Shown piece after piece: positions 1,224 to 27,254 of a stretch of 27,725 nucleotides of DNA. Location: positions 1-27,725 of the forward strand of contig JAKFCT010000085.1 of NCBI GenBank assembly GCA_036676495.1, given 5' to 3'. Every line of letters starts with the position of its first letter. Within the stretch, counting starts at the first letter, position 1. The notes under the pieces are model-generated. The model was given only the letters and a program-made list of their open reading frames with translations, ran no database searches and was not told the DNA's origin. This DNA is from Candidatus Sericytochromatia bacterium. Its GTDB lineage: Bacteria; Cyanobacteriota; Sericytochromatia; S15B-MN24; UBA4093. Made by a program: the position numbers and the translations under genes.

Positions 1224-2177
1224 TCACCTGAGCTCTTGGACAAGGTCCTTGCCCTGCGCGAGCCACCAGTCGACGGTTTTCCGCAGGCCTTCTTCGAGGC
1301 CAACCGACGGCGTCCACGCAAGGATATCCTTCGCGCGGCTTCCGTCGATGGCGCGTCTTGGCTGGCCGTCGGGTTTTTGGGGGTCCCAGAAGAGAGCCCC
1401 CTGGAACCCGACCAGCGACGCAATGATCGACGCGAGGTTTTCGATCGTGATCTCCTCGGAGCCGGGGAGATTGATGGCTCCCTCGTAATCCAGGCCGCCG
1501 ACCGCCCTGGCAATGGCCTCGGCCGCATCATCGACGTAGAGGAAACTCCTGGTCGCCTTGCCGGTGCCCCAGAGAGTGACGCTCTTCCGACCTGCCTGTG
1601 CCGCCTCGGAGATCCGCCGGATGAGAGCCGGGATCACATGAGACGTCCGCGCGTCGAAGTTGTCTCCGATGCCATACAGATTGCAAGGCACGAGATACGC
1701 ATACTTGAGGCCGCGCCGGGCCCGGTAGGCGGCGCACATGACCAGGAGGGATCTCTTGGCCACGCCATAGGGGGCGTTCGTTTCCTCCGGATAGCCATTC
1801 CAGAGATCTTCTTCCCGAAACGGAACCGGGCAGTGCTTCGGGTAGGAACAGACTGTTCCGACAGCGACCACACGCGCGCCGGCGCTCGCGGCGGCCTCGA
1901 TCACGTTCATGCCCATGCGCATGTTGTCGGTGAAGAAGTGGTCTGGATGTTCCTGATTCGCTCCGATGCCTCCGACCCGCGCGGCGAGGTGGACCGCCAC
2001 TTCGGGCCTCGATTCCAGGAATGCCCGATAGGCCTCCGCCTTGTCCCTCAGGTCATAGCCGAGGCTCCGGCTGACGGGATATACCCGGGCGCCGGCCGCA
2101 TCGAGAATCGCGGTCAGCCGTTTTCCGAGAAACCCGGTCGCGCCGGTCACGAGAACCTTGAAGTCCTTGATCGTCAC
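1224..2177 (-). CDS. fcl: GDP-L-fucose synthase (extended SDR epimerase/reductase)
   Basis: VLVTGATGFLG Rossmann motif, HLAARVGGIGAN, CSYPK, YPEETNAPYGVAK (YxxxK), NLYG..DNFD..SHVIPALIRR, WGTG..TRSFLYVDDAA, KPDGQPRR. GTG start at 2177 overlaps the upstream TGA. Confidence 0.95.
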   Translation of the reverse strand: MTIKDFKVLVTGATGFLGKRLTAILDAAGARVYPVSRSLGYDLRDKAEAYRAFLESRPEVAVHLAARVGGIGANQEHPDHFFTDNMRMGMNVIEAAASAGARVVAVGTVCSYPKHCPVPFREEDLWNGYPEETNAPYGVAKRSLLVMCAAYRARRGLKYAYLVPCNLYGIGDNFDARTSHVIPALIRRISEAAQAGRKSVTLWGTGKATRSFLYVDDAAEAIARAVGGLDYEGAINLPGSEEITIENLASIIASLVGFQGALFWDPQKPDGQPRRAIDGSRAKDILAWTPSVGLEEGLRKTVDWWLAQGKDLVQELR

Positions 2178-2524
2178 ACATCTAGCCCCTGAGAAATCCG
2201 TTCCGCCGAAACATGGAGCAACCATGTCGCTCCCGCCGCCACAAAGGCATCGACGCCCCATGCGATTCCAGGAATGACGTTCGGCCAGACGAGAAGGCAC
2301 GGAGACAAGCCCTTGATCGACAAGGCCAGACCCGCCCACAAAGCGATGCACGGAGGACAGCGTACGAGGGCGGCCAGAGGTTTCAAAAAGACCAACCAGC
2401 GCAATCGCGACAGCCGATCCAGGGGGCGCTGAAGAAGAAACTGGCCGGCCTTCAGAACGCCGACCACGGTGCCAATGCCATAGGTGGCCAGGATGAAGAC
2501 GGAAAGACCGGCGGCGATTTCCAT
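2174..2524 (-). CDS. Small multi-TM membrane protein with CPPC motif (DUF1360-like)
   Basis: MEIAAGLSVFILATYG...LVRCPPCIALWAG, with three hydrophobic segments. ATG lies 1 nt after the upstream TAA. Confidence 0.7.
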   Translation of the reverse strand: MEIAAGLSVFILATYGIGTVVGVLKAGQFLLQRPLDRLSRLRWLVFLKPLAALVRCPPCIALWAGLALSIKGLSPCLLVWPNVIPGIAWGVDAFVAAGATWLLHVSAERISQGLDV

Positions 2525-3782: not shown

Positions 3783-4700
3783 TCAGCTTGACGACCAGGC
3801 GACGAGGGCCATGGCGGCAAGGCCCGCCACGACCAAAAGCGCATAATCCTGAGCCGTCGGGATGCTTTCCCCGATCTCCTTGGCAAGAGCGCTCATAAAG
3901 GCTGCGCTCGGAGAACGGAGGCCCACGCCGGCATCCGAGAGAATGATCCAACGCCGGCGGATCTCGTCCTCTTCCTCCTGGAGCCTGCCGAGTTCACCTG
4001 CAGTAAGATCCGGCATGGCCTTGACGCGATCGATGGCCGCGAGCCATTTTCCGGCATCCGCGCGCCAGGATTCCGCCTGTGGAAGGACAAAGAGGGGAAG
4101 CGTTAGATCGTAGAGGGACGGGTTCTCGATCAGGCGTCCAACATCCATATCCGAAAGTACGGGACCGGAGCCGGACAAACGCAGTTTGAGTTCGGACCAT
4201 CGCCCTGCCAAACTGTCGTTGGCCAGCCGGCGAAGCCCTCGAGACATTTCATCGGCCGACGCAAGTTCCTGGAGCGCCCCATCGGCCGTGGTGTCGGAAG
4301 GCCTGAGAAGCGAGAGGATGCCGCCCGCGGCAAGCCCAAAACCCGAGACGAGCCCGACGATGTTCCATTTTGGAGGAAGGAAACCCGTCGCCACGAAGGA
4401 AAGGCCGCTGGCGGCGAAAAAACCGACCGCTTTCGCCACATTCCCGGTATCGGTCCCGATCTTGGAATCCTGTGACTGGCCCAGATGAGGCCGGAGACCC
4501 ATCGTCCGTGAAACGGAGCCTGTAGGAAGAACCCGGCTATAGGGTCGACTTCCTAGAGTGAAGCCGCTTGCGGCCCAGATAAGTCCGTCGGCGGCCACGC
4601 CAGGCCAATTCCAGAGCCTGCCATCGGCCAGTCTACGGAGCTTTCCAGAAACAGGATGACCGATGCCTTGAGCGCCTTCGCTCTCCGGCAGGATGGTCAT
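3783..4700 (-). CDS. Putative virion membrane protein (LGQ leader, internal TM hairpin, C-terminal TM)
   Basis: ...RPHLGQSQD, hydrophobic segments AVGFFAASGLSFVATG and WNIVGLVSGFGLAAGGILSLL, C-terminal YALLVVAGLAAMALVAW. Confidence 0.7.
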   Translation of the reverse strand: MTILPESEGAQGIGHPVSGKLRRLADGRLWNWPGVAADGLIWAASGFTLGSRPYSRVLPTGSVSRTMGLRPHLGQSQDSKIGTDTGNVAKAVGFFAASGLSFVATGFLPPKWNIVGLVSGFGLAAGGILSLLRPSDTTADGALQELASADEMSRGLRRLANDSLAGRWSELKLRLSGSGPVLSDMDVGRLIENPSLYDLTLPLFVLPQAESWRADAGKWLAAIDRVKAMPDLTAGELGRLQEEEDEIRRRWIILSDAGVGLRSPSAAFMSALAKEIGESIPTAQDYALLVVAGLAAMALVAWSSS

Positions 4701-5692
4701 TCGGAGGACTCGTGAGGAGCCCCCCTTTCGTCGTAGACGACGTAACCGCCGTCCTCGCCAGGCGCGCGCGTCCCCCCATCATCGAGCGCGTGCTGGACCG
4801 CGTCCCCGGTTCAGCCGAAGGGACCTGCGGTTCTGCATGCCCCCCCGGTCGCCGGCCCCCAGTAGTCGACCCAGAAGGATTCTGCAAAACCGCTCGACGG
4901 AGGCGTTCCAGGAGGCGGAGGCGATCCGCAAGGTTCCCATACGACGATCGTTTTCGTCGGGCGATCGCAGTCGGACGGATCCAGGATCTGCCATCCCGAA
5001 GCGAGATCGACCGCGAGGCCCTCACGGCCTTCGACCTCTACCCGAAATGTCTCCTTTCCAAGGCAGAGATTCGCCCGAGCGCCGCGTCCCGGATCGACGA
5101 CGGCTCCCCACCAATACCGTCCTGCCCTAGGAAGGCCAGGGACGACGACGCGCTCCACGATCTTCCCTTTCGCCGTGTGATCTCCAAGCCTGGCACCGCA
5201 GCCGATCTTGAAAGGCTCCGGCCTCTCGCCCTGCAGCCTCATGAGGAGAGGTTTGCCGAAGATGATCCCGAGGCTCACGATATAGGCGGGAATCGAAAGC
5301 CAAGGGAGCGCGAGAAAGGTTCCGGCGATGGCCGCGCCGGCGGAGACGACGAGCGTCGTTTTTACCGCCGAAAGCTTTTCGTCACGCGCCCCGATCAAGC
5401 ATTCCTGGAGATCGAAGAGAGCCAAAAGCCCATCCCTCGGGATCGAAATGGACCCGGCCCCCCGGTGTCGCTCGATGGCCTGGGTCATCGCGCCGACCCG
5501 ATCAAGGATCGGTTGCCAGTCCCCAGGAGGGCAATAGGCGTGGAACTCTATCGGGTTGTCATTGGCGAACCCGATGACATCCTCGACCGCACGGACGACG
5601 AGCTCGCCCTCTTCGGCGGAAATCTGGATCGTCTGTCCAGGCGCCGGAGACGGCGCGAGAACCGGGCCCTGTCCAAGGAACGCGACTGCCAT
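4697..5692 (-). CDS. Putative virion membrane protein with in-frame TGA at 4811-4813 (candidate Sec/readthrough); 4811..5692 if the TGA is a true stop
   Basis: Starts MAVAFLGQGP and has a TM hairpin and Cys-containing C-terminal part. After ...CRTAGPFG-TGA the frame continues TGDAVQHALDDGGTRAPGEDGGYVVYDERGAPHESSE to a TGA at 4697-4699 that overlaps the next ATG (4700). Confidence 0.7.
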
Positions 5693-5693
5693 C

Positions 5694-5825
5694 CTACCGC
5701 TTCTTCCGTTTCCCCTGGAAGACGCAGGTGCCCTTGACCCGTTTGCCCGAACGCATGTGGCTTTTCCGCCAGAATCGTCCCGGCCGGCACTTCCGGCCGC
5801 CGAGCTCAAGGAGCGCGTCGGCCAT
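5694..5825 (-). CDS. Small basic Arg/Lys/Cys-rich protein (possible nucleic-acid-binding core protein)
   Basis: Manual translation MADALLELGGRKCRPGRFWRKSHMRSGKRVKGTCVFQGKRKKR, with a strong GGAGGAGGT RBS. Fills the gap exactly. Confidence 0.7.
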   Translation of the reverse strand: MADALLELGGRKCRPGRFWRKSHMRSGKRVKGTCVFQGKRKKR

Positions 5826-5828
5826 CGT

Positions 5829-6092
5829 TCACCTCCTCCTCGTGGGGCTCCGTGAACCGACCTCGATCACCGTCTCCGGATGGTGCCTTTGTCCGATACC
5901 GAGGTATTTCAGGGGACACGAGATCGGCTCGACGAGCGGATCCCCGCGCTCCTTTCGGAACTTGACTCTGCGATCGGTTCCGACCTCGGCGATCCGTCCG
6001 TCGCCGAGCTTCTTCCTGAGGACGGCTCCGCGCCCGGGTTTGCGGTAGCAATGCCCGGGCGAAAGCTCGCTCAGCCGCGCGAGCTGTCTCAC
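5829..6092 (-). CDS. Hypothetical basic protein
   Basis: GTG start 2 nt after the upstream TAA, with GAGG RBS: MRQLARLSELSPGHCYRK... Confidence 0.6.
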   Translation of the reverse strand: MRQLARLSELSPGHCYRKPGRGAVLRKKLGDGRIAEVGTDRRVKFRKERGDPLVEPISCPLKYLGIGQRHHPETVIEVGSRSPTRRR

Positions 6093-6094
6093 GT

Positions 6095-6349
6095 TTACTG
6101 CCTCGTGAGCGCCGAAAAATCGTTCCAGGCCCGGATGCCCGCCATAAGCGCGACCAGCCATCCGACGGTCCGCCAGCCCCCCCGGAAGCTGAGTCCGGCC
6201 GTGACGCCGAGGGCGGTAGCGAATCCGTTCGAGATCAGTCCGACGACGCGGTTGTCGAGCACGCTCGACTGCCCGAGGATCGGTCCGCGGTATCCGAGAT
6301 TCGGCCGTCTCTGGATGATCGGCATGCCCATCCGCGTAACCATGTTCAT
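6095..6349 (-). CDS. Small 2-TM membrane protein with LG/LGQ leader
   Basis: MNMVTRMGMPIIQRRPNLGYRGPILGQSS... followed by two hydrophobic helices. ATGA-coupled to the upstream gene. Confidence 0.7.
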   Translation of the reverse strand: MNMVTRMGMPIIQRRPNLGYRGPILGQSSVLDNRVVGLISNGFATALGVTAGLSFRGGWRTVGWLVALMAGIRAWNDFSALTRQ

Positions 6350-6657
6350 CGCTTCTTCCTCCTCGCCGAGTCCCGGGTTCCGAGATCGGCAACCGACGCG
6401 TTCATGCAGTCCGTCAAAGAACAAGCCGGCGTTTCCCGGATCACCAGGCGGCGCTTCTTTCCAGCTCCAGCCAGGGCACCGGGAGCTACGAAGTAGAAAC
6501 GGTTGCCCCGCCTCACCGCCGCGACCGAGGCGCGGGAGGCGCCCGCAAGATCCGCGACGATGATCCGGTCCCCCACAAGTTCGCTCCTGGCGATCCGGAG
6601 CGGCCCGTCCGGCCGCTTCATTCCCTCCAGGGCTCAGGCATCGACCTTGATTTTCAT
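6346..6657 (-). CDS. Hypothetical protein with in-frame TGA at 6634-6636 (candidate Sec/readthrough)
   Basis: ATG 6657 overlaps the upstream stop (ATGA) and reads MKIKVDA-TGA-ALEGMKRPDGPLRIA...PACSLTDC. The downstream ATG 6621 has GGAGG only 2 nt away, which is poor spacing. Confidence 0.65.
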
Positions 6658-7028
6658 GCCCATCGGCCTCCTTCCAGCGCGCGACCCGTTTCCCGGGCGA
6701 TCCTCAAACTTGACAGCATCGCCTCGGCCGCGACGTACGTCTCCTCGGCGCGCTCGATGGCAAGGGCCGCCTCATCGAAGACCGCGGCCGTCTTTTCCGC
6801 GCCCAGGAGGTCGACCAGCGCCTCGGCTTGTCTGGCGATCCCCTCGGCCCTTTTCCTGGCGCCAACAAGCTTTGCGTGGGCCCGTTCCCGTTGGGCCAGG
6901 ACGGTTTCCGACGGGTGATCGACGGGAGGCGGTTGGGGCGTGAACGGGAGCCTCACGACCTCTTCCTGACCGAGAAGAACTCTCGGCCCGGAGAGCCGCG
7001 AAAGCCCTGTCCACCGTCTGGATGCCAT
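6654..7028 (-). CDS. Helical/coiled-coil protein with LGQ leader
   Basis: MASRRWTGLSRLSGPRVLLGQEE..., GGAGG RBS, Ala/Glu/Arg-rich helices. Confidence 0.75.
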   Translation of the reverse strand: MASRRWTGLSRLSGPRVLLGQEEVVRLPFTPQPPPVDHPSETVLAQRERAHAKLVGARKRAEGIARQAEALVDLLGAEKTAAVFDEAALAIERAEETYVAAEAMLSSLRIARETGRALEGGRWA

Positions 7029-7036
7029 CCGGCCTC

Positions 7037-7819
7037 CTAAAACGCAATCCCGACGACGATCACTCCTACCGCAAGCGCGGCGATCCCTATCAGCGCGAAC
7101 GATTTACGCCGCTTCGACGAGAGACCATCCGCGCATGCCGTCACGAGATCGGTCGCATGGATGTCTCGGACCGTGGCCTGGACCAGATCGGTCTCGGGCC
7201 GCGCAAGCTCGTCGGCGAGTCTGGCCCGGAAGGAACGCGCATCGGCAAGGACGAGGGGATCGATCGCGAGTCCGCAGGCCTCTTTTCGTTCTAGGTCGCT
7301 TGCCTCGGCAACCTTGGCGATGGATGAATCCAGAGCCTCGAGTACGGCCTCGGCTTCGGGCCTGGCGAAATCGACGGAGGGACCCGGGGCGGGGCCGGCC
7401 TGAGTTCCGCCAGGGGGCGGCGGCATCTCTTCTCTCGGCGGTTCTGCAGGCCCTTCGTCCTGGCCCAGATGATAGGCTCCGTAAGAGCCCATCCGGAGCG
7501 GAACCCAGGCGCGGCTGGACGCGTCAAAAGCCGTTCCGGCGCGGAGGGCCGCGTCGCCTCCCCTCAACTGACTTGACATCCGAAGCACTTGAGCGGGTGC
7601 CTGGGTTTCGCGGCCGGAGATGCCCTTGCGGGTTGCCTTGGGCCTTCCGAGCCTGACCTCTTCCGGATTCCTATCCATCTCGTTCCACGCCGCCGGCCTG
7701 GAGCGCGTCACGCGCGGCATCATGCCCGCGCCGCCTCAACCCAGTCCGGGTTCTTCTTTCTCCGCGCCCTCCGGGCGCGGACCGAGCGGCATCGACTTTC
7801 CTCAACCCAGGGCGCTCAT
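7037..7819 (-). CDS. Tail-anchored putative virion protein with two in-frame TGA codons (7802-7804, 7736-7738)
   Basis: GAGGAGG RBS, then ATG 7819: MSALG-TGA-GKSMPLGPRPEGAEKEEPGLG-TGA-GGAGMMPRV..., in frame with the 7037..7723 ORF. Contains YHLGQDEG, a two-Cys helical domain and C-terminal TM FALIGIAALAVGVIVVGIAF. Confidence 0.7.
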
Positions 7820-7832
7820 CGGGCCTCCTCGG

Positions 7833-8210
7833 CTACAAGATCTGCCGGGCGATCGAAACGAGTCCGCCCGCCAGCGATACGGCGCCGGCGAGCGACTGCC
7901 ATGGCCTTGATCCCTCCGAAGCGTCGAGAGCCGCGAGTCGTTCCGTCACGCGGCCCTCCGCCATCCGCACGAGGGACTCGAGCCTTTCCATGCGGCCGAG
8001 ATCGGCCTCTCGCGCCCGAACCCCAAGATGCAGGATCCGCTCAAGCGACCCCGTTCCCAGGAGGAGCCTTGCCTCCAGGGATGCGACCTCAAGCCCGAGC
8101 TGGGCCGCAGTCTCGGGTTCGCTTTCCCCGAGCTCCGCAAGGGCCCTCCCGGAGCGCCCGAGCAGGTTGGCCTGCTCGGCCAGGAATCTTCCGGCAAGCA
8201 TTTCATCCAC
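7833..8210 (-). CDS. Helical protein with C-terminal TM anchor
   Basis: Leu/Glu/Arg helices ending in PWQSLAGAVSLAGGLVSIARQIL. Confidence 0.7.
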   Translation of the reverse strand: MDEMLAGRFLAEQANLLGRSGRALAELGESEPETAAQLGLEVASLEARLLLGTGSLERILHLGVRAREADLGRMERLESLVRMAEGRVTERLAALDASEGSRPWQSLAGAVSLAGGLVSIARQIL

Positions 8211-14522: not shown

Positions 14523-15089
14523 CTAGTCCATCCGCCAAGCCCGGAAAACGATGTGGAACCTCGCGATCGACGCGATGTCGTAGTTGAGCGCGAAGACGCG
14601 GAATCCCCCTTCGGGGCAGAGGCCGAAGTTTTCCGTGTTCACGAACGCGCCGCGGGTCTCCTGGGGATGGGTCGGGAGACACATCTCCGGGAAATCCACG
14701 AATTTGTTGTTCTTGAAGGACACCTCGCCCGAATCTTCCGCGGTGACGTTCGCGGCGGTCACCCGCAGGATCTCGACCCATACGCCGGCATCGAGCGGAG
14801 CGCATATTTCCAGGATCTTCTTCTCGAACGGGTCTTGGGCCGACGGCGCCGGATCGACGTCCGTTTCGAATTCGAAGTAGGTGACCGGACCGGCGGGCCA
14901 GACCGTGCCGATCGGTCTCAGGGCCCCCATCAGGTGAAGGAGTTTGACGACCTCGGCCGCGAAGCCGCCCTCGGCGATGATGCGCCTGACGGAAGGAGGG
15001 AAATCCCCGGTCCTGCAATAGCGCAACCAGTCCGAAAGCGAAAGCCAATCTCGGACTGCCGACGCGTCCGGAATCTCCGCGATCTTCAC
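14523..15089 (-). CDS. Beta-rich protein; candidate second (jelly-roll) capsid protein
   Basis: GGAGG RBS and GTG start. Alternating beta-strand patterns (VTYFEFET, VWVEILRVTA, FRVFALNYD, RFHIVFRAWR). Directly follows the capsid candidate. Confidence 0.5.
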   Translation of the reverse strand: MKIAEIPDASAVRDWLSLSDWLRYCRTGDFPPSVRRIIAEGGFAAEVVKLLHLMGALRPIGTVWPAGPVTYFEFETDVDPAPSAQDPFEKKILEICAPLDAGVWVEILRVTAANVTAEDSGEVSFKNNKFVDFPEMCLPTHPQETRGAFVNTENFGLCPEGGFRVFALNYDIASIARFHIVFRAWRMD

Positions 15090-15187: not shown

Positions 15188-15925
15188 CTAGGTGCCGAAG
15201 GGCCCCTGTTCGAGGCCGTACTGCACGCCGTACCCCGGACGGGGTCCCGGGACGCCCGCCGTCCCGGCGACGACCGGCGGGGCGAGCTGGGCCTCCGCGC
15301 AGGCGTTGATCGGGACGATCTGCTGGGTCTGGGGCTCGTAGACCCCGGGGGTCAGCCAGCAGCGCTTCCGGTCCTGGGTCGAATACTCCCACTGCCGCCA
15401 GATCGTCACGAGCGTGAAGGTCTCGGCGAACCCGGTGGGGAAGGCGGCCGTGAGGGTGGCCAGCGTGTCGCGGGTCGTGAAGACCAGCGGGCACTCCTGC
15501 TGGAGCATCGACACGGGGACGCCGGGGATCACGCGGGCCGCGGTGGTCGGCTGGCCCGTCACGGCGCAGACGCCGCAGCCCGTGTACTTCTTGATCGAGT
15601 CGTCGTCGATCAGGGGCTCGTCGTCGTTGTCGAGCGTCAGGCGGACGAGGCCGCGGATGTAGAGGATGTAGTCCGCGATCGGCATGTCGTCCGTCTCGAA
15701 GTGGGGCCCCGCGGCGAGCATCGCGTTGCAGGGTCCGGGGGCGTTGCCCGGCACGGCGTTGTTGATGACGGTCGCGGTCACCGTGGCGTTCGTGGTGGCG
15801 ATGCCGTCGACCGTGTTCACGTAGAGGGCGTCCGCCGAGCAGATGAGCTTGACGGGCACCGCCTGGCAGGCCATGGCATCGACCACGGCCGCGTACATGG
15901 GCGGGTTCCTGTACATCTGGTTCAT
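15188..15925 (-). CDS. Candidate major capsid protein (single jelly-roll-like)
   Basis: 245 aa, Thr/Val/Pro beta-rich, no TM. Near-exclusive G/C third positions suggest high expression. AGGAAGGAG RBS, flanked by structured UTRs. The fold is inferred, not demonstrated. Confidence 0.55.
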   Translation of the reverse strand: MNQMYRNPPMYAAVVDAMACQAVPVKLICSADALYVNTVDGIATTNATVTATVINNAVPGNAPGPCNAMLAAGPHFETDDMPIADYILYIRGLVRLTLDNDDEPLIDDDSIKKYTGCGVCAVTGQPTTAARVIPGVPVSMLQQECPLVFTTRDTLATLTAAFPTGFAETFTLVTIWRQWEYSTQDRKRCWLTPGVYEPQTQQIVPINACAEAQLAPPVVAGTAGVPGPRPGYGVQYGLEQGPFGT

Positions 15926-15953
15926 CTCCTTCCTGACCGTTTTCCCTTTTCCC

Positions 15954-16075
15954 GGCCTGTTTCCAGGCCACACGCGCTTTGGCCGCCGCCGCCGGGCGGG
16001 GAGGCCGTGGACCCTGGAGCGGCCTTTCGGCCTCTCCTCCCGGTGGGGTCCGCGGCTCCCCGGCCCGGCGGCCGC
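15954..16075 (-). ncRNA. Structured intergenic RNA / 5' UTR upstream of the capsid candidate
   Basis: Long stem GCCGCCGGGC-CGGGGAG-CCGCGGACCC ... GGGTCCACGG-CCTCCCCG-CCCGGCGGC capped by GGCC-GAAA-GGCC, then a second hairpin GGCCTG-GAAA-CAGGCC (two GNRA tetraloops). Confidence 0.55.
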
Positions 16076-16773: not shown

Positions 16774-17394
16774 CTACGATGCCGCAATCAGCGCAAGCGC
16801 CCCCGCCCCTATCGCGAGCGGGACTCCGATCAGAAGCGCGGCCGAAAGGCCCCCTTCGTCCGCGCCGTTCCCGTCCGACCTGACATCGGCCCGATCCCTC
16901 GGAAGCATCCTTTCGACCTGGTCCCTGGCCTGCGGAGGGGCATTGTCGAGGATCCTCTGCCGGGCCTTGGAAACCGTGTTTTTCCGGTCCTCCTCTCCGA
17001 AGTTCGCTTCCAAGGCGTCGGAGAGCCCCTCGAAGAGGTTCGATATTTTTTCGAGAGCCAGGTGCGGGATCTCGATGGCGAACTTGAGGATCGCGCCGGC
17101 GGCGAGGACGGCCTGCGCCGCGAGCTCCCCGAGAAGGGGGATCTCCCTTAAAAGCGCCGAGACGTTCGAGAAGACGACGTCGACGCCGGAGACGAGGAGT
17201 TCGGTCGGCACGGAAACGATATCGGCGATGACTCCGACCACGGTCCCGAGGGCGTCGGCCAGGAACTGCGCGGCCGACGAAAGGGCGTCGCCCAAGGCCG
17301 GTCGGCGCTGGGCGAGAAACGGCCTCTGGCGGGCGGACGTCCCGGAACGGCCGAGTTCGAGGAGCTCGGTCGCTCCAAGCGTGTAGGCCCTCAC
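16774..17394 (-). CDS. Tail-anchored putative virion protein (YTLGAT leader)
   Basis: GTGA-coupled start MRAYTLGATE..RPALGDAL, amphipathic helices and C-terminal LLIGVPLAIGAGALALIAAS. Confidence 0.75.
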   Translation of the reverse strand: MRAYTLGATELLELGRSGTSARQRPFLAQRRPALGDALSSAAQFLADALGTVVGVIADIVSVPTELLVSGVDVVFSNVSALLREIPLLGELAAQAVLAAGAILKFAIEIPHLALEKISNLFEGLSDALEANFGEEDRKNTVSKARQRILDNAPPQARDQVERMLPRDRADVRSDGNGADEGGLSAALLIGVPLAIGAGALALIAAS

Positions 17395-19184
17395 AGGGGC
17401 ACCTCGAGCTCGTCGTAGTCGTCGAACTCCATCTGATCTCCGAAACGGAGCCACGGCTCCGTGAAATCGCTGTTCCAGGGCTCGCCGGCGATGTAGATCC
17501 GGGCCCATGTGTGATGGATCGATCCGCCGTCGCCTCCGAAGGCGAAGCAGAGTTTGTCGTCCTTCGAACCCACGCCGATCGCAAGCGCCGCGCACATCGC
17601 CAGGTAGAGGCACCCCGGCTCATCGCAGTTGTGAACCAGAGAACCATTGTCCAGGAGGAAGTTGCCGTTGTCGGCCACCGTGAGATCGCAGCAGCGCGTC
17701 TCCGGCTCGAGTTCCACCGATCTCAAGCGACTCGAGACGAGTTCCGGACGTTTACGATCTCGCTCGTTCTTGTACTCGAACAGGCGGTACATCGCGGGCT
17801 TATCCTTCCACGGTCTCTGCAGATGACCGCTCAGAGGCCGACCGAGGACCAAGTGCATGAAACGTAGTTGCCTGGCCAATGCCTCTGACTTCGTGTTATG
17901 GACGAGATGGGCTTTGGTCGCCCACCGGCCGTGCGTAGGAACGAAACCGTCTCCGAGCGTGTATGCTCCGACCAAGACGCTCATTGCATCTTTGGAAAGG
18001 GATAGATACCCGTCCGGAAAGCGCTTCGTGCCAGCATTCCCTCCGAAAAGAGTTGCCAGTCTCTTGGTGAAGGGAGATGTATTGAGACGAAGCGTGACGA
18101 GTCCATCTTTGCGGAGATGTTCCCCATACGGCTGGTCGATAACGGCCAGGTTTGTCTTGAGGCCTCCGATCGCATGGGGGTCGTTCATGCCGATCTTGGC
18201 CCGGTAGGAAGCGTCCTTCCGCTTCCCTCGTCCCATCGGCTCGGACCACCCTTCGGCCACGTAGAGACCTTCGATGTGAAGCTGGGCGCTTCCCAGCCCC
18301 AGGGCGTGTTCAAGATTTGCTCCTGCTTCAGGGATGCGCGCCGCACAAGCCACCGTATACAGCTTGCTTCTCGCCGTCTGTTTTTCGGCAAGCAACTCGG
18401 CCAGCGTCATGGTCACGAGTTCATGGGTCGTCCGTCTCTTGGACCGAAAGACGTAAAGCCTGTGGTTCTCCGTGCAACGGAACGACGTCCCGTTGGTCAG
18501 AGAGATCTTGTAGACAGGAAGTGTCCCCTTGTGGATGAAGCGCGTGATGGGCTTGAACTCGAAGCGCTCCTGCGCTTCGTTGTAGGAGACAACCTCCCGA
18601 TCCCAGAATGACTGTTCCAGTTCCCCCGCTTTGATGACCTCGTAGTAGCGGTCCGATTTTCTGCGTGTGATGATCGGCTGGTCGAATGGGATGCAGTCAC
18701 CGATGAACATCGGACGCGGCGAATAACTCCCGCGGTGGAACTCCGGCTCGAGCTCCTCGAGCGCCGCGTAGAAGGGCTCCATGAACTTCCGGAGGGCGTC
18801 GATCGGCAGCCGCGCGTGCCTGACCATGCGCTCCGGCGTCTGGATGACCTCGATGCCGGCCGGGTCGTTCACGTAGAAGTAGAGATGCCGCATGAGGATG
18901 TCGCAGGCCTCCGCCTGCAGGACCTTGTTCTGGTGGATCTCCACCTCTTCGCCGCGGCTCTGGGCGTAGTCCTGGACGAGGATCGAGTAGCGGGCCGCGG
19001 CCTCGCGGGCCGCGTCGACGACGAGCTTCTCTTTGCGGCCGTCCTTCACGAGGCGGCACATGCGGCCGATCTCGAAACGGATCCCGTCCCACGTGTCCGG
19101 GAGATGGGTGTAGCGCGCCTCTCCGCGCTCCGGCGACGGGGCGTCGAGGGCCCGGGAACTCATCTTGTAATGGGTCTGGCGCAC
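17391..19184 (-). CDS. Transglutaminase-like cysteine protease/transglutaminase interrupted by an intein
   Basis: The spliced product (241 aa) has YVNDPAGIEVIQTPER...FIGD|CDE...IHHTW...WNSDFT, i.e. a GDCD/E Cys plus His and Asp triad of the transglutaminase-like superfamily. Confidence 0.85.
   Translation of the reverse strand: MRQTHYKMSSRALDAPSPERGEARYTHLPDTWDGIRFEIGRMCRLVKDGRKEKLVVDAAREAAARYSILVQDYAQSRGEEVEIHQNKVLQAEACDILMRHLYFYVNDPAGIEVIQTPERMVRHARLPIDALRKFMEPFYAALEELEPEFHRGSYSPRPMFIGDCIPFDQPIITRRKSDRYYEVIKAGELEQSFWDREVVSYNEAQERFEFKPITRFIHKGTLPVYKISLTNGTSFRCTENHRLYVFRSKRRTTHELVTMTLAELLAEKQTARSKLYTVACAARIPEAGANLEHALGLGSAQLHIEGLYVAEGWSEPMGRGKRKDASYRAKIGMNDPHAIGGLKTNLAVIDQPYGEHLRKDGLVTLRLNTSPFTKRLATLFGGNAGTKRFPDGYLSLSKDAMSVLVGAYTLGDGFVPTHGRWATKAHLVHNTKSEALARQLRFMHLVLGRPLSGHLQRPWKDKPAMYRLFEYKNERDRKRPELVSSRLRSVELEPETRCCDLTVADNGNFLLDNGSLVHNCDEPGCLYLAMCAALAIGVGSKDDKLCFAFGGDGGSIHHTWARIYIAGEPWNSDFTEPWLRFGDQMEFDDYDELEVPL
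17628..18695 (-). mobile_element. Intein with LAGLIDADG homing endonuclease (356 aa)
   Basis: Starts CIPFDQPI. Block B CTENHRL, LAGLIDADG-like GLYVAEGW and GAYTLGDGF, block F CDLTVADNGNF, ends VHN|C. Visibly lower GC than the flanks. Confidence 0.93.
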
Positions 19185-22394: not shown

Positions 22395-23543
22395 ATGTAT
22401 AAGCGTCTGCATGATTCCGTCCCGGACTCCCTCAAACTCGGTAAGTTGAGCGACTTCGCTTTTCGCTCGTGGACCGTAGCCCTTTCCCAGGCGGACTGGT
22501 ACGGCAGGCTCACTGCGAAGCCTGAAAAGTTCGTGGTCCAATGCTTCCCGAACCGAAGGGAGGTCACCCCTGAACAAGTGAAGGCTGCGCTCGACGAGGT
22601 AGCCGACGTGATGGGCGAAGGGCTCATCCATCTGTACAAGAGCTCCGACGGGAAGGAGTACCTGGTCTTGCACAACATCGAGGAGCATAACCCCAGGCAG
22701 ACGCACTCGAGAGCAGCGTCAGCGTACCCGCCCCCCCCGAAGGGTCTCTGCCCCTGCGTCAGATACTGTCCCCAGGAGGGCCAAGGACCCTTCGGAGGAA
22801 GGGAGTTCAGGTTCTACCCCGGTCTCTTCGAGAAAGCGGGAAAGGAGGAGGGAGGGAAAGGCTGTGGTGCAAGTGCGTGCTTTGGCGTGCATGAGCGTGC
22901 AGATGCGTGCTTTGGCGTGCAAGGGCGTGCAGAGGCGTGCTTGACCGTGCATGATAAAGATCCTTCCTCTCCTCTCCCTTCCTCTCCTCTCCCTTTAGAG
23001 GGAGGGACGGAAACGGGGGGGTGTGGGGGGGGGCAGGGTCCCATGGACAGGCTTTCAGCCGAATTCGAGGCCCTGACGGGCAGATCGGCCTTCCGTTCAG
23101 AGGAGGAGTGTGCCAAAACGGCACAGTTACTCGCCCCGATCCTGGCCGCGCGGCCCCTGGAAGAGCTTCTTGGCGTCATGTCCGCAAGGATCAGCCGCGA
23201 ACGGACGCGCGGAACCAAGGGACCCGCGTCGATGCGCTATTTCGTCGCCGTCTTTTCGGATCCAAGGTCCTTCGGGCCGGCACCGCCGAAATCCGCCCCA
23301 TCCAAGGCCGATGAACCCCGAAAGCCGCCGGCCGAGGACTATAGCCGCCTCCGCGAGATCGCCGAGGACAAACTTTCGGCGCTCCCCGAGGACGAACTAT
23401 CGCTCTGGAAAGAGGACGCCGAGCAAGAGGCCGCTCGCTCCGGAGTGATCTCGTTCATGCGTCCGCTGTACGTGAAGACCAGGCTCGCCGATCGCGCCAT
23501 CCAGACCTTCGGCATCTCAATCAAGGGAGGGGATCCGCCATGA
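22395..23543 (+). CDS. Phage replication initiator / replisome-organiser-like protein
   Basis: AAGGAG RBS. N-terminal KL..LSD..F..W....SQADWYGRL...GLIHLY..DGKEYL pattern of phage initiators, central low-complexity linker carrying DNA repeats, C-terminal ..SMRYF.. helical domain. Confidence 0.75.
   Translation: MYKRLHDSVPDSLKLGKLSDFAFRSWTVALSQADWYGRLTAKPEKFVVQCFPNRREVTPEQVKAALDEVADVMGEGLIHLYKSSDGKEYLVLHNIEEHNPRQTHSRAASAYPPPPKGLCPCVRYCPQEGQGPFGGREFRFYPGLFEKAGKEEGGKGCGASACFGVHERADACFGVQGRAEACLTVHDKDPSSPLPSSPLPLEGGTETGGCGGGQGPMDRLSAEFEALTGRSAFRSEEECAKTAQLLAPILAARPLEELLGVMSARISRERTRGTKGPASMRYFVAVFSDPRSFGPAPPKSAPSKADEPRKPPAEDYSRLREIAEDKLSALPEDELSLWKEDAEQEAARSGVISFMRPLYVKTRLADRAIQTFGISIKGGDPP
22861..22993 (+). 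repeat. Iteron array / putative replication origin inside rep
   Basis: Nine (C/G)GTGC units at exact 10-bp spacing (22866-22950), with a higher-order 30-bp repeat gcgtgctttggcgtgca..., followed by a pyrimidine tract (ccttcctctcctctc x2). Confidence 0.8.
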
Positions 23544-23860
23544 AGCCGTTCACGTGCCTTCTCTGCAAGGCTTCTCTTTTGGAGAAGAAGCCCTTCTCTG
23601 TTCCGGTCTCGGACACGGTTTCGGCCAATCCGCTCTGCCGTCCCTGCGCGGCAAAGCTTTCGGTGGACGAGATCCTTTCGTTCGTGTCCACCCAGACCGA
23701 ATCGTGGCCTCCGGAGGCGCCCAGGAAGGACAAGGATCCCCCAGGCCGCATGGAGACCGCGCGTCTTTCTCTCGAGCGGTGGTTCGCCGGGCACGGTCTT
23801 GCGGAGGATCCGCTCGATGTCCGAGATATCGAAAAACACAAGGGCAAAGCCGCGCCTTGA
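23540..23860 (+). CDS. Zinc-finger protein (CxxC...CxxC)
   Basis: FTCLLCK...PLCRPCA, ATGA-coupled to rep. Confidence 0.7.
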   Translation: MKPFTCLLCKASLLEKKPFSVPVSDTVSANPLCRPCAAKLSVDEILSFVSTQTESWPPEAPRKDKDPPGRMETARLSLERWFAGHGLAEDPLDVRDIEKHKGKAAP

Positions 23861-23885
23861 CCCAGAGGCGCATATCCGATATACT
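23857..23885 (+). promoter_or_regulatory. Sigma70-type promoter probably giving a leaderless mRNA
   Basis: TTGACC-17 nt-TATACT, with ATG 23892 six nt downstream and no RBS. Confidence 0.65.
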
Positions 23886-23891
23886 TTGGCC

Positions 23892-24560
23892 ATGGCCCGC
23901 GAGACCGCGATCGCGATAGGCCTCGGGCAGCCGCCCGGCGTGGAAATAGAGGTCGCATCGACCTCGGAGCTTGCGCCGGGCGACCTCATCTGGATCTCGT
24001 TCCCCTTCGGCGCGCGCGGATGGTTCAAATACGGCTCCGAGGAGACTTTCACGGTCGTCTCGGTCGATCCGGACGGGACCGTCAACGTGATCGACGAGGG
24101 CGGGGATCCCTTCGTCCTTCCCGGAGGCAGCACGGCCGAGCTTCGGGCGAAGCTGAGAGACCAGACGAGTTTCAGCGCGATTACGATCGTCCGGCCGGAC
24201 CTCGGGCCTCCGGGGTCCGGCCAGGTCGCCCAGGGTCTCGGAATGCCTGGGGGCTATCGCGAAATCCCCGTCATGACCTGGAGCGACCTCAGGGTCGGCG
24301 ACTACGTGCTTCTCGGCCAAGCGACCGGCATCCCCACGCTGGTCCGCGTCGAGGACGATGATCCGGAGCTTCTCATCGCGCGCGTGATCGGGACGGAATC
24401 CCCGAGCGCCCAGCCGGGAGACCTCTGGTATTTCGAGGGGCCGGGCCGGATCTTCGCTCCCGACGCGGCCTTCCGGGGCCAGCCCATCGAGGAAGGCTGG
24501 TATGTGGCGGGCGCGGCCGTCGTCGCCGCCGGCGCTGCCCTTGTCCTCGCCTTCTGGTAG
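23892..24560 (+). CDS. Tail-anchored protein with LGQ leader and two SH3/KOW-like repeats
   Basis: MARETAIAIGLGQPP..SELAPGDLIWI.. and ..SDLRVGDYVLL.., with C-terminal WYVAGAAVVAAGAALVLAFW. Confidence 0.7.
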   Translation: MARETAIAIGLGQPPGVEIEVASTSELAPGDLIWISFPFGARGWFKYGSEETFTVVSVDPDGTVNVIDEGGDPFVLPGGSTAELRAKLRDQTSFSAITIVRPDLGPPGSGQVAQGLGMPGGYREIPVMTWSDLRVGDYVLLGQATGIPTLVRVEDDDPELLIARVIGTESPSAQPGDLWYFEGPGRIFAPDAAFRGQPIEEGWYVAGAAVVAAGAALVLAFW

Positions 24561-24570
24561 GAGGTGATCT

Positions 24571-25101
24571 CTGCCCTCTCAACTCGAGATCGCCTTTTCC
24601 CCCGGAGCCCTCCCTGTTGCGCGATCGTTCCGGGGCTATCCGTGGTGGGAAAGCCGGGAACGCGCCAAACCCATCCGGTGCCGCGAGTGCGGCCGGCCCA
24701 CCAACACCTACCATCGGAAGATCTCGACTTCCATGGGCTGGAAGCTCGTCCGGCTCCACCGCCTCGGCCTTGAGGACGAGAACCAGTTTTTCCACGTCTC
24801 CGAGTTCGACGTCCTCGGCGGCCGCGGAGAGTCCGGCACGCTCTCCGTCTGGGGCCTCGTCGAGGAGCGGGCGACGGTCGACCCCAGGAAGAAGACCTCC
24901 GGCTTCTGGAGGCTGGCCCCGGACGGGCTTGCCTTCGTCCGCCTCGAGGCCATGATCCCGAGATACGCGATCGTCCGCTATCGGAGCGAAGTGGTCGGTT
25001 TCGCAGGTCCCGCCGTCGGCTTGGCCGAGGTCCTCGGAAAGGATGGCCGGTTCGACTACCGGGAGCTCCTCCAGTCTCCCCTCCCCTCTCTCCTCCGTTG
25101 A
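24571..25101 (+). CDS. Conserved phage-type Zn-ribbon/winged-helix protein; probable CTG start
   Basis: The frame extends upstream of ATG 24733 through IRCRECGRPTNTYHRKISTSM. The only start-like codon near the AGGAGGT RBS is CTG at 24571. WGLVEE..SGFWRL..G..FV..FDYRELL resembles a phage family I recall. Confidence 0.65.
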   Translation: MPSQLEIAFSPGALPVARSFRGYPWWESRERAKPIRCRECGRPTNTYHRKISTSMGWKLVRLHRLGLEDENQFFHVSEFDVLGGRGESGTLSVWGLVEERATVDPRKKTSGFWRLAPDGLAFVRLEAMIPRYAIVRYRSEVVGFAGPAVGLAEVLGKDGRFDYRELLQSPLPSLLR

Positions 25102-25127
25102 CATCCCCAAGCGGCCCATGATAAGAT
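25098..25127 (+). promoter_or_regulatory. Sigma70-type promoter with extended -10
   Basis: TTGACA-18 nt-TAAGAT with TGn immediately upstream of the -10. Confidence 0.6.
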
Positions 25128-25137
25128 TCCTCCGGAG

Positions 25138-25287
25138 ATGGACGGTCGGGACGCCCCGGAGGGCGGCCCGGCTCCGGGAGGACCGGTGGCCTTCGTCTGG
25201 TTCGTCATGGCTTATTGCGTGGCGAGCTTCATCCTTGCGGCGGTCATGCTCTCCCGCCTCCCGAAAGACAAGGGAGCCGGCAGATGA
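25138..25287 (+). CDS. Small single-TM protein (49 aa)
   Basis: Manual translation MDGRDAPEGGPAPGGPVAFVWFVMAYCVASFILAAVMLSRLPKDKGAGR. Its stop overlaps the next ATG (ATGA). Confidence 0.6.
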   Translation: MDGRDAPEGGPAPGGPVAFVWFVMAYCVASFILAAVMLSRLPKDKGAGR

Positions 25288-25703
25288 CGGCCATTTCCTG
25301 GCCCGTTCTCGCGCGAAGCCCGAAACAATCGCTCGGGGCCGTGGCGCCTCGCAGGCTCGGACTTTCCGGATCTATCTCGACCTCCCAGCGCATGGCCGTC
25401 TCCGTCCTTTCGGCGCTCTCCATCGCGGGCGTCCATAGCGCGCTTAACCCGTCGCTCTTCACTCTCATGAGCTTCGCCACGCGTCCCGAGGCGAAGAAAC
25501 TCGCGATGAAGGGCCTCTGGATCGGATTCGGCGCCTCGACTCTCGCCAGCGGCATGATCTGGGTCGTCTTTTCGGACTGGCTCCCCGCCCTCATCTCCGA
25601 GGCGACGGCCCTCGGGCTCTTCGCCGCCGGCGTCTGGGCCTTGAACCAGGCCGCCCCGGTCACGATCCCCAGGATCGAAGAACAGGAACTCCCCGGACCG
25701 TAG
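25284..25703 (+). CDS. Multi-TM membrane protein with LG leader
   Basis: MTAISWPVLARSPKQSLGAVAPRRLGLSG..., three hydrophobic segments. Confidence 0.75.
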   Translation: MTAISWPVLARSPKQSLGAVAPRRLGLSGSISTSQRMAVSVLSALSIAGVHSALNPSLFTLMSFATRPEAKKLAMKGLWIGFGASTLASGMIWVVFSDWLPALISEATALGLFAAGVWALNQAAPVTIPRIEEQELPGP

Positions 25704-25715
25704 GGAAGGAAGACG

Positions 25716-26207
25716 ATGAGGATCTCGATGCCTCTCGGGGCGGCCAGGATCGCGCTTGGCCAGGGCCAGAACCTGCTCGTTCCGCGAGGCATCCGTCAGG
25801 GCCAAAGAGCCCAGCCGGCCGGCCCGCCCGAAGGCATCCGCGAGGGCGATAGACGAATCCCCCCCGGCAAAGCCGCGCTCACCGTGCCGGAGGCGAAGGA
25901 TCTCCTCGCCTCGCTCGATCTCGTCGTCCGTCCCATCGAGAAAGAGGAGCGCGCCCTCGCCGAGCACGAATGCCTCCGGGAGCTCCAGGCCGGCCCCTTC
26001 CCCCAGGTCGTCCGCCTCAAGGCCAAGGTCGCCGCGTTCCTCGAAACGGCCGCCCCCGGCGACCTCTTCCCCGTCTCCGCCGGAGAGCTCGAGGTCCTCG
26101 AGAAAGCCGTCGCGTGCGCGGAGTCCCTGGGCCGGGGCCGGGCCGTGAAAGTCGCCGTCGCCGCCGGAGGCGGCGCGGCCGTCCTCGCCCTTCTACTTCT
26201 GGCTTGA
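25716..26207 (+). CDS. Tail-anchored protein with LGQ leader and two-Cys helical domain
   Basis: MRISMPLGAARIALGQGQ...EAKDLLASLD...HEC...LEKAVACAE...AAVLALLLLA. Confidence 0.8.
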   Translation: MRISMPLGAARIALGQGQNLLVPRGIRQGQRAQPAGPPEGIREGDRRIPPGKAALTVPEAKDLLASLDLVVRPIEKEERALAEHECLRELQAGPFPQVVRLKAKVAAFLETAAPGDLFPVSAGELEVLEKAVACAESLGRGRAVKVAVAAGGGAAVLALLLLA

Positions 26208-26218
26208 TCGGAGGCTCG

Positions 26219-26461
26219 ATGCCGGTTTTCTATCTCATGGGCGCCGCGGCCGCGGGATGGCTCGCCGGCATGCTCGCCCGACGCGATCAAGCGCTCGGGA
26301 TGAGACACCAAACGCCGTTCGACCGAAGCCCGTTCGAGTTTTCCAAAGGTCGCCAGAGGGAGCCCGTCGTCCTCCGCGCCCCCGCCCAGCCTCGCGAGTT
26401 CCGTTCCATGGCATGGCGCGAAGGCCGGATCGCCTCCGCCTGGCAGCCCTTCGACTGGTAG
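26219..26461 (+). CDS. Small protein with N-terminal TM
   Basis: GGAGG RBS, MPVFYLMGAAAAGWLAGMLARRDQALGMR... Confidence 0.65.
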   Translation: MPVFYLMGAAAAGWLAGMLARRDQALGMRHQTPFDRSPFEFSKGRQREPVVLRAPAQPREFRSMAWREGRIASAWQPFDW

Positions 26462-26469
26462 GAGATCCT

Positions 26470-26724
26470 ATGGCCCGCTGGTCGACGCAGTCGGTCCTGG
26501 TCCGGCGTTCTCGGACCGGTCCGGGCAGTTCCGCCGCCAAGGCCAGGGCCTACGTCAGGAAACACGGCTACCGGGCCGGCAAGGTCGACAAGACCAGGAC
26601 CTACTACCGGTTCCGCCAGGCCCCGCCGGCCAGGTTCAAGAAGCGCTCGATGCGCACCCTCTGCGTCTCCCATCGGCTCTGTTTCATCCGCGGCCGTCTC
26701 GCCAAAAAAGGTTCCTCTTCATAA
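26470..26724 (+). CDS. Small basic viral protein of the 'QS..HGY..KVD.T..YYRFRQ..P' type
   Basis: AGGAG RBS, MARWSTQSVLV...YVRKHGYRAGKVDKTRTYYRFRQAPPARF. I recall this motif from small proteins of diverse dsDNA viruses; function unknown. Confidence 0.7.
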   Translation: MARWSTQSVLVRRSRTGPGSSAAKARAYVRKHGYRAGKVDKTRTYYRFRQAPPARFKKRSMRTLCVSHRLCFIRGRLAKKGSSS

Positions 26725-26735
26725 GGGGGTCTCCC

Positions 26736-27254
26736 ATGCCGATCTTCGGCCAGCCCTTCCCCGGCGGCGGGTTCCAGATCCACTCGCCGGGCTTCTCGTT
26801 CCCAGAGCCCGAGCCGGCGGCGCCGCCGCCCATCGACTGGGGGGGTGCGCCAGGAGAACCCCCGCCGCCGTTGCCCCCGCCCGCCCCGGCCCAAGGAGAA
26901 CCGGTCCAGGTCCCCCTCGGCCCCCGATTCGCCGCGGCCGCGGCAGGCGCGGTCGCCCCGGCCGCGGGCGCGCCTGCGGCCATGGCCGTTCCTCCGCCGG
27001 CGGGAGGATCGGTCGTCTGGATCTCCGAGGCGTGGCTTGCCCCGCGGCCCGTCGCCTACGGCTGCCCGGATTTCGCGGGCTTTTATTGCCCGCCGAGGAG
27101 GGCCGGCGCCGCGTACGAAGAGATCCCGCCGGAGGCGCTCGAGGACCAGGCGGCCAGGATCGAGACGCCGGTCGCGGCCAAGATCGCGACGGTGGGGGGC
27201 CTCGGCGGGCTCCTCGTGGTGGGACTCGCGGCGGCGGGGGCGTTCGGGAGGTAG
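26736..27254 (+). CDS. Pro/Ala-rich tail-anchored protein
   Basis: MPIFGQPF..., poly-Pro, YGCPDFAGFYCPP and C-terminal IATVGGLGGLLVVGLAAAGAF. Confidence 0.75.
   Translation: MPIFGQPFPGGGFQIHSPGFSFPEPEPAAPPPIDWGGAPGEPPPPLPPPAPAQGEPVQVPLGPRFAAAAAGAVAPAAGAPAAMAVPPPAGGSVVWISEAWLAPRPVAYGCPDFAGFYCPPRRAGAAYEEIPPEALEDQAARIETPVAAKIATVGGLGGLLVVGLAAAGAFGR

Follow-up and report, generated by a model that had tools for sequence, protein, structure and literature searches.

The window analysed here is the entire contig JAKFCT010000085.1 (C85; 27,725 bp, 64.8% GC) of the metagenome bin G000. It carries an operon of mobile-element-like character in which three adjacent genes, called A, B and C, contain four in-frame TGA codons (sites A to D). 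Judged from comparative sequence data, all four TGAs are almost certainly read through. They probably act as sense codons by site-specific recoding, with selenocysteine (Sec) as the most likely residue, and genes A, B and C most likely encode three selenoproteins of previously undescribed families. The genes and sites are the following.

7037..7819, minus strand: gene C, 260 codons, starting at ATG 7819 and ending with TAG 7039..7037; it contains two in-frame TGAs
7824..7830, minus strand: Shine-Dalgarno sequence GAGGAGG, 4 nt before ATG 7819
7802..7804, minus strand: site C, UGA at codon 6 of gene C, MSALG-U-GK
7736..7738, minus strand: site D, UGA at codon 28 of gene C, PGLG-U-GG
6346..6657, minus strand: gene B, from ATG 6657 (another in-frame ATG at 6663) to TGA 6348..6346, with an in-frame TGA at codon 8
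6634..6636, minus strand: site B, UGA in the context MKIKVDA-U-ALEGMKRP
4697..5692, minus strand: gene A, 331 codons, starting at ATG 5692 and ending with TGA 4699..4697; its only in-frame TGA is codon 294
4811..4813, minus strand: site A, UGA in the context AGPFG-U-TGD
4700..4810, minus strand: gene A tail after the UGA, 37 codons, TGDAVQHALDDGG...DGGYVVYDERG...

A preliminary description of this DNA had placed the four TGAs at these positions and had reported a ribosome-binding site before ATG 7819, an ATGA overlap at 6657 and the 4697/4700 overlap; all of these were confirmed. Relatives were collected by a protein search with read-through gene A against 5.8 billion proteins (10 matches, 40-100% identity), followed by a metagenome scan with the alignment of these 10 gene A proteins, which gave 18 loci (L002-L019; the window is WIN). 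The order of the operon genes is kept across the related loci at protein identities from 80% down to ~30%. Gene order and frames are collinear between the window and L003, with no other decay seen.

The gene A product combines a helical domain at the N-terminus with membrane helices and a beta-rich domain at the C-terminus. Reading through site A adds 37 codons up to TGA 4699..4697, which overlaps ATG 4700. The site is TGA in seven loci (WIN, L002, L003, L005, L006, L007, L014), TGC for cysteine (Cys) in five (L008, L009, L010, L011, L017) and a codon for Ser, Asn or Gly in a further six, which are shorter forms of the soil type (L012, L013, L015, L016, L018, L019), with Ser in L012, L013 and L015 and Gly in L018 only. 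The preceding AGPFG is invariant, and the tail ..D...HA...GGF...G.DG.Y..YD..G is kept in each of the 17 loci that extend this far. The 10 database proteins, predicted with code 11, all terminate exactly at AGPFG. Between the window and L003, the 38 codons compared for the tail comprise 18 identical, 9 synonymous and 11 non-synonymous ones. An AlphaFold2 (AF2) model built from 19 sequences has a mean predicted local distance difference test score (pLDDT) of 77, reaching ~88-92 in the C-terminal 140 residues. In the model, residues 295-306 of the tail form a helix, which together with a beta-hairpin packs on strands 273-292; residue 294 stands at the helix start. Comparison of this model with PDB and BFVD (Foldseek), and by VIA-align wide, gave nothing above chance, the best VIA-align hits (Z 6.4) being generic helical bundles. 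The likeness that had been seen between an IGCG in the gene starting at 5692 and the LG*G contexts did not hold up, as that column varies in the gene A alignment.

Gene B starts with ATG 6657, which forms an ATGA overlap with the TGA that ends the preceding gene. Five loci have TGA at site B: WIN and L002-L004 with the context MKIKV[DE]A-TGA-ALEGMKRP, and L006 with VKFKMTP-TGA-MWNGLKRP. Two others, L008 and L010, carry TGC (Cys).

Gene C is predicted to encode a tail-anchored membrane protein with a hydrophobic C-terminal segment. A GAGG-type site also precedes the corresponding ATG in L003, L006, L008 and L010. The gene evolves fast, with 19-27% identity between groups. Nevertheless, site C is TGA in all nine lineages (WIN, L003, L006, L008, L010, L015-L018), each of which starts with M..LG-TGA-G, and the N-terminal L-G-U-G is the only invariant block of the alignment, beside the start Met and the scattered columns R109, A171, L201 and G252. 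A second TGA, corresponding to site D, follows 12-33 codons after site C as G-TGA-[GRK] in eight of the nine lineages; L010 alone is without a stop there. Codons 1-31 of gene C include 18 identical, 8 synonymous and 5 non-synonymous codons between the window and L003. A profile search of 1.84 billion representatives returned 90 family members, only three of which (P0039, P0043, P0047) reach profile positions 1-20; all three read ..LGCCGYDEL... Several other members begin directly past the LG-U-G motif, as expected if the TGA stopped gene callers. Frameshifting by +1 or -1 at GGU UGA GG was considered and ruled out, as the zero frame is conserved after the TGA. As a separate observation, the part of gene C at 7573..7693 (minus strand) is hypervariable among soil sequencing runs, with many substitutions and a 3-nt deletion at 7688, every change being frame-preserving; in one soil run, a 95-nt stretch of it is swapped for 92 other letters.

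An open frame in 65% GC DNA could arise by chance, but the conservation in relatives shows that these frames do not. Across independent assemblies at 32-80% protein identity, all four sites hold TGA or a sense codon and never TAA or TAG. The true ends of orthologous genes in the nine lineages are TAG in 44 cases, TGA in 41 and TAA in 9, and the type switches between lineages; the true end of gene A itself is TGA, TAG or TAA depending on the lineage. Since true stops switch type while the in-frame sites stay TGA or sense, the data point to site-specific recoding and not to a changed code. The preliminary description had drawn the same distinction from the use of TGA as a true stop, which is indeed still common in this operon. 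Code-wide reassignment of TGA (tables 4 and 25) does not fit either, with TGA ending 41 of 94 orthologous genes and with Trp never, and Gly once (L018, site A), as the aligned residue. Logan contigs from four soil-metagenome runs of two studies span 4600-7900 with indels in multiples of three, and none of the 40 differences listed out of 213 falls on a TGA. A scan of the whole window for in-frame TGA codons gave no further conserved one by the criteria applied. The alternation of Cys and TGA with conservation on both sides, proposed beforehand as a test, gave a positive result, with Cys aligned at sites A, B and C.

Next, the DNA after each TGA was compared with the bacterial selenocysteine insertion sequence (SECIS). 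According to the consensus given in PMC13188914, the apical loop is 3-9 nt long with a G in its first two positions, the stem has 4-16 bp, and the hairpin lies 16-37 nt after the UGA with a folding energy of at most -7.5 kcal/mol. Only contiguous stems were accepted here, and 46,047 positions served as background. The candidates in the window are as follows.

7761..7781, minus strand: candidate SECIS of site C, UCCGCGCCC[GGA]GGGCGCGGA, 29 nt after the site, -18.0 kcal/mol, passing the consensus and kept in L003
7703..7731, minus strand: two overlapping candidate hairpins of site D, GCGCGG[GCAUGAUG]CCGCGC and GCGCG[UGA]CGCGC
6599..6617, minus strand: candidate SECIS of site B, AGCGGCC[GGACG]GGCCGCU, 23 nt after the site, -14.1 kcal/mol, passing the consensus

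A consensus hairpin follows 20 of 26 distinct TGA sequences (B 4/4, C 9/9, D 7/8, A 0/5), compared to 10.7% of the background positions. Among the non-TGA sites, 5 of 12 pass, all five at site A (four soil-type forms and the Cys form L017), and neither of the two Cys forms of site B (L008, L010) has a qualifying hairpin. Shuffling synonymous codons with the protein held fixed gave Fisher P values of 0.007 for site B, 3e-7 for C and 4e-6 for D and 0.22 for the non-TGA homologous sites, with P = 0.0065 for the site C hairpin of the window; since the hairpin rule was set after the hairpins had been seen and the lineages are related, these values are inflated and indicative only. The stems vary while loop and spacing stay alike. 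At site C, a GGUC loop at +23 is constant in L006 (GUCUCC/GGAGAC), L008 (GCCUCC/GGAGGU) and L010 (AGAUGC/GCAUCU). At site D, a GGA loop at +24 is carried by the stems CGUCAUCA/UGAUGACG in L006 and GUCGUCA/UGACGAC in L008. The hairpin of site B is kept via a G:U pair in L002 and L003, and L006 has a different stem. SECIS-type hairpins 3' of the UGA, which the preliminary description named as part of bacterial Sec insertion, are thus present after sites B, C and D but not after site A. On the side, the TGA-less gene A forms L012, L015, L016, L017, L018 and L019 have a strong hairpin at ~+30 past the site A column, at SECIS distance, e.g. GCCGUC[CGAAAC]GGCGGC. It may be the remnant of a former SECIS, or it may simply result from the coding sequence for AVRNGG.

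Besides the inflated P values, several observations weigh against selenocysteine. Site A has no consensus SECIS in any of its five distinct TGA sequences, and the synonymous-codon shuffle is null there (Fisher P 0.76, median P 0.86). The site D sequence of the window itself narrowly fails the strict consensus, which seven of the eight distinct site-D sequences pass, and no Cys form was seen at this site. The 48 nt following each TGA fold with energies ordinary for GC-rich DNA (percentiles 0.03-0.6). In bin G000 (4.1 Mb, completeness 91.9%, contamination 6.7%), selA, selB and selD all stay below the curated cut-offs, the best matches scoring 20 bits against 268 for selA, 109.9 against 242 for selB and 53 against 125 for selD. 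Among the 52 tRNAs of the bin none has a UCA anticodon, and the best matches to tRNA-Sec are tRNA-Leu(UAA) and tRNA-Ser(UGA). selA is absent from all three genomes of the bin's genus; it is present in 4 of 9 other genomes of the family and in 22 of 41 relatives overall. Finally, the window carries no sel gene and no tRNA, as had been noted before, and the same holds for the 18 related loci.

A host without Sec machinery had been named in advance as an outcome that would speak against selenocysteine. This applies to bin G000 as such; the contig, however, is linked to the bin by binning alone. Contig C85 has no DNA match to the other 105 contigs of G000 and shares only epimerase paralogues with them at the protein level. 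Apart from the window itself, no gene A relative was found in 60 relatives or in 400 genomes of the phylum, and two pattern scans of 185,579 species genomes returned none. The binning-only link, the contamination of the bin and the lack of the family in the 400 genomes of the phylum make G000 an uncertain candidate for the true host.

Three other explanations have to be weighed. UGA could be recoded to another residue, as Cys via a tRNA-Sec-like tRNA-Cys with a SelB-type factor, or as Ser, Trp or Gly via a suppressor or an unusual host tRNA. Both kinds of recoding, by tRNA-Sec-like tRNA-Cys with a SelB-type factor and by suppressor tRNAs, are known. The lack of Sec machinery in bin G000, the lack of a consensus SECIS at site A, and Cys as the commonest replacement, with Ser and Gly also occurring at site A, would all agree with this explanation. 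It is nevertheless unlikely in view of the SECIS-consensus hairpins at sites B, C and D. In addition, site C is never replaced in nine lineages, which suggests that plain Cys is not equivalent there, neither the window nor the related loci encode a tRNA, and TGA is a frequent true stop in the operon, so a free suppressor tRNA would be costly.

Somewhat less probable still is that the TGAs are leaky or regulatory stops, at which translation mostly terminates (giving a 5-residue leader and a 293-residue gene A product) and only a fraction of ribosomes read through, so that isoforms coexist or the supply of a decoding factor throttles expression. Such stops would be cheap at sites B, C and D, which lie at codons 6-42 and are followed by good internal starts with ribosome-binding sites (ATG 7791, 7723 and 6621), and site A ends at an invariant motif resembling a C-terminus, with no consensus hairpin. 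Yet conservation at the protein level covers the stretches between the TGAs and those that follow them, the AF2 model places the gene A tail within a folded domain, and the Cys forms are necessarily translated in full. Leakiness would also fit Sec decoding, an inefficient process in its own right, and hence does not exclude Sec. That the TGAs are ordinary stops, combined with misjudged starts, pseudogenes or assembly errors, is very improbable. Open frames are common in 65% GC DNA and gene callers do give plausible shorter genes, but the same TGAs with conserved flanks recur in the independent assemblies, TAA and TAG are never found at the sites even though true stops vary, independent Logan contigs span the region, and the operon is otherwise intact and collinear with L003.

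If selenocysteine is indeed inserted, it would be delivered by SelB and tRNA-Sec of the true host, guided by SECIS hairpins within the coding sequence 19-29 nt downstream of the UGA. The gene C product would then be a tail-anchored membrane protein with two Sec residues in its N-terminal LG-U-G ... G-U-GG region, the gene B product would have Sec at residue 8, and the gene A product at residue 294, at a helix start in the C-terminal domain. From the Gly-flanked N-terminal Sec pair, the Cys-Cys replacement in distant relatives and the Sec at the gene A helix start, we infer that the inserted Sec might serve redox or metal chemistry; the element would also depend on a Sec-competent host.

As to the nature of the element, the preliminary description spoke of a virus with virion-type genes, for which no support was obtained. 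Pfam and PHROGs scans of ~40 window proteins are almost blank: they name only an NAD-epimerase (1224..2351), an intein and a weak match to a replication initiator, and among these proteins there is no hallmark match to a capsid, a packaging ATPase/terminase or a portal. The same scans of 20 proteins of related loci added only DegT and GT2, both in L003. No relatives were found in IMG/VR (3 scans), among INPHARED phages or among PLSDB plasmids. ESM Atlas searches gave scores of 0.85 or less, and PDB sequence searches found an intein only. Two adjacent beta-rich proteins at 15188..15973 and 14523..15089 (minus strand) include the most conserved one of the element (15188..15916, 96% identical in L003). 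The two were considered as a possible pair of single jelly-roll capsid proteins, but the AF2 model of 15188..15916, the best capsid candidate, failed (pLDDT 27.8). It is conceivable, if doubtful, that the element is an unclassified virus, perhaps tailless and membrane-containing, of soil and groundwater bacteria. Its membrane-anchored particle proteins would then need four Sec residues, including an N-terminal LG-U-G selenol motif never replaced by a sense codon in the nine lineages with DNA. This would be the first selenoproteome of a bacterial virus or mobile element, with propagation gated by host SelB, tRNA-Sec and selenium supply.

The genes on the minus strand run head to tail from ~21,244 down to 3, and a smaller plus-strand block (22,395-27,254) carries the weak replication-initiator match (PHROG 1408, E = 1.9e-6). 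The contig ends show no terminal overlap, and a scan of the whole window gave no tRNA and no Rfam match. Family members occur on contigs of 28-32 kb and also within contigs of 53-242 kb, where the 20 kb around the operon are equally dark. Sugar-modification genes stand at the operon end, namely the NAD-epimerase at 1224..2351 (minus strand) in the window and a DegT-type aminotransferase plus a family 2 glycosyltransferase in L003 (15744..18470); these hint at glycosylation of a surface or particle. The intein occupies residues 164-519 of a 597-residue protein at 17391..19184 (minus strand; Pfam Intein_splicing, 9.4e-12), with the extein junction ..FIGD|C..HHTW..D. A reading of this protein as a Cys-His-Asp protease of transglutaminase type, its catalytic Cys being the intein insertion point, was considered and dropped, as Pfam scans of the separate exteins lent it no support. 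Between membrane-protein genes at 5694..5825 (minus strand) lies a Cys-containing, strongly basic peptide of 43 residues (~14 Lys/Arg) that is kept in L002-L004 and possibly binds or condenses nucleic acids. Soil-type loci have three tandem paralogous small membrane proteins after the coiled-coil gene (L015 8052..9269; same place in L016-L018), which share the motif GADVLFS.LTA.GAMTVGIAAMT.G ... SNVSKISK. In bin G000, 1,146 long open reading frames end in TAG (448), TGA (371) or TAA (327), which is unusually rich in TAG and TAA for 66% GC.

If the reading as selenocysteine is right, three selenoprotein families without known domain would be added, one of them holding on to its UGA more firmly than to any other residue. 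Bacterial mobile elements could then encode selenoproteins and hence depend on a patchily distributed host trait, which bears on host range, on selenium ecology and on gene calling in metagenomes, since the database entries for these families all break off at the UGAs. In the literature search, no report of a selenoprotein from a phage, prophage or plasmid came up, though the supplementary family lists of BSepDB and deep-Sep, which lay outside its coverage, might hold these families. The main text of a 2026 review of prokaryotic selenoproteomes (PMC13188914) does not contain the words 'phage', 'virus', 'viral', 'plasmid' or 'mobile'.

In bacterial selenoproteins that depend on SelB and a SECIS within the reading frame, such as E. 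coli formate dehydrogenase H (fdhF), the UGA is likewise in frame, orthologues have Cys, and a hairpin with a G in the first two loop positions lies 16-37 nt downstream, as it does here after sites B, C and D. The GGUC loop starting at +23 at site C of L006, L008 and L010 has its counterpart, with the same spacing, in fdhF. Different here are the lack of any known family, the placement of the putative Sec, which falls at codons 6-42 or close to the C-terminal end of membrane proteins, the clustering of four such codons in three neighbouring genes of a mobile-element-like contig, the lack of a consensus hairpin at site A and the lack of Sec machinery in the associated bin. Selenoproteins of eukaryotic viruses are known from the glutathione peroxidase of molluscum contagiosum and fowlpox viruses. 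These are captured host enzymes with a eukaryotic SECIS in the 3' untranslated region; they too belong to a mobile genetic parasite that relies on host Sec machinery, whereas the families described here are new, have candidate SECIS of bacterial type and belong to an element that may or may not be viral. Reassigned stop codons are known from crAss-like phages and others of the gut, in which TAG stands for Gln or TGA for Trp. These phages likewise have in-frame stops in late or structural-looking genes of a mobile element. Their reassignment is code-wide and comes with a suppressor tRNA; here, in contrast, TGA ends 41 of 94 genes, only four sites are concerned, Cys is the aligned residue and no tRNA is encoded. 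The last parallel is thioredoxin reductase, which ends in Gly-Cys-Sec-Gly, or in Ser-Cys-Cys-Ser in insects. There is no relation in sequence or fold, and the motif found here is N-terminal in a tail-anchored membrane protein. In both cases, however, a Gly-flanked Sec, putative in the present element, would stand at a flexible protein end, and Sec-less relatives carry a vicinal Cys-Cys, as LGCCG compared to LG-U-G.

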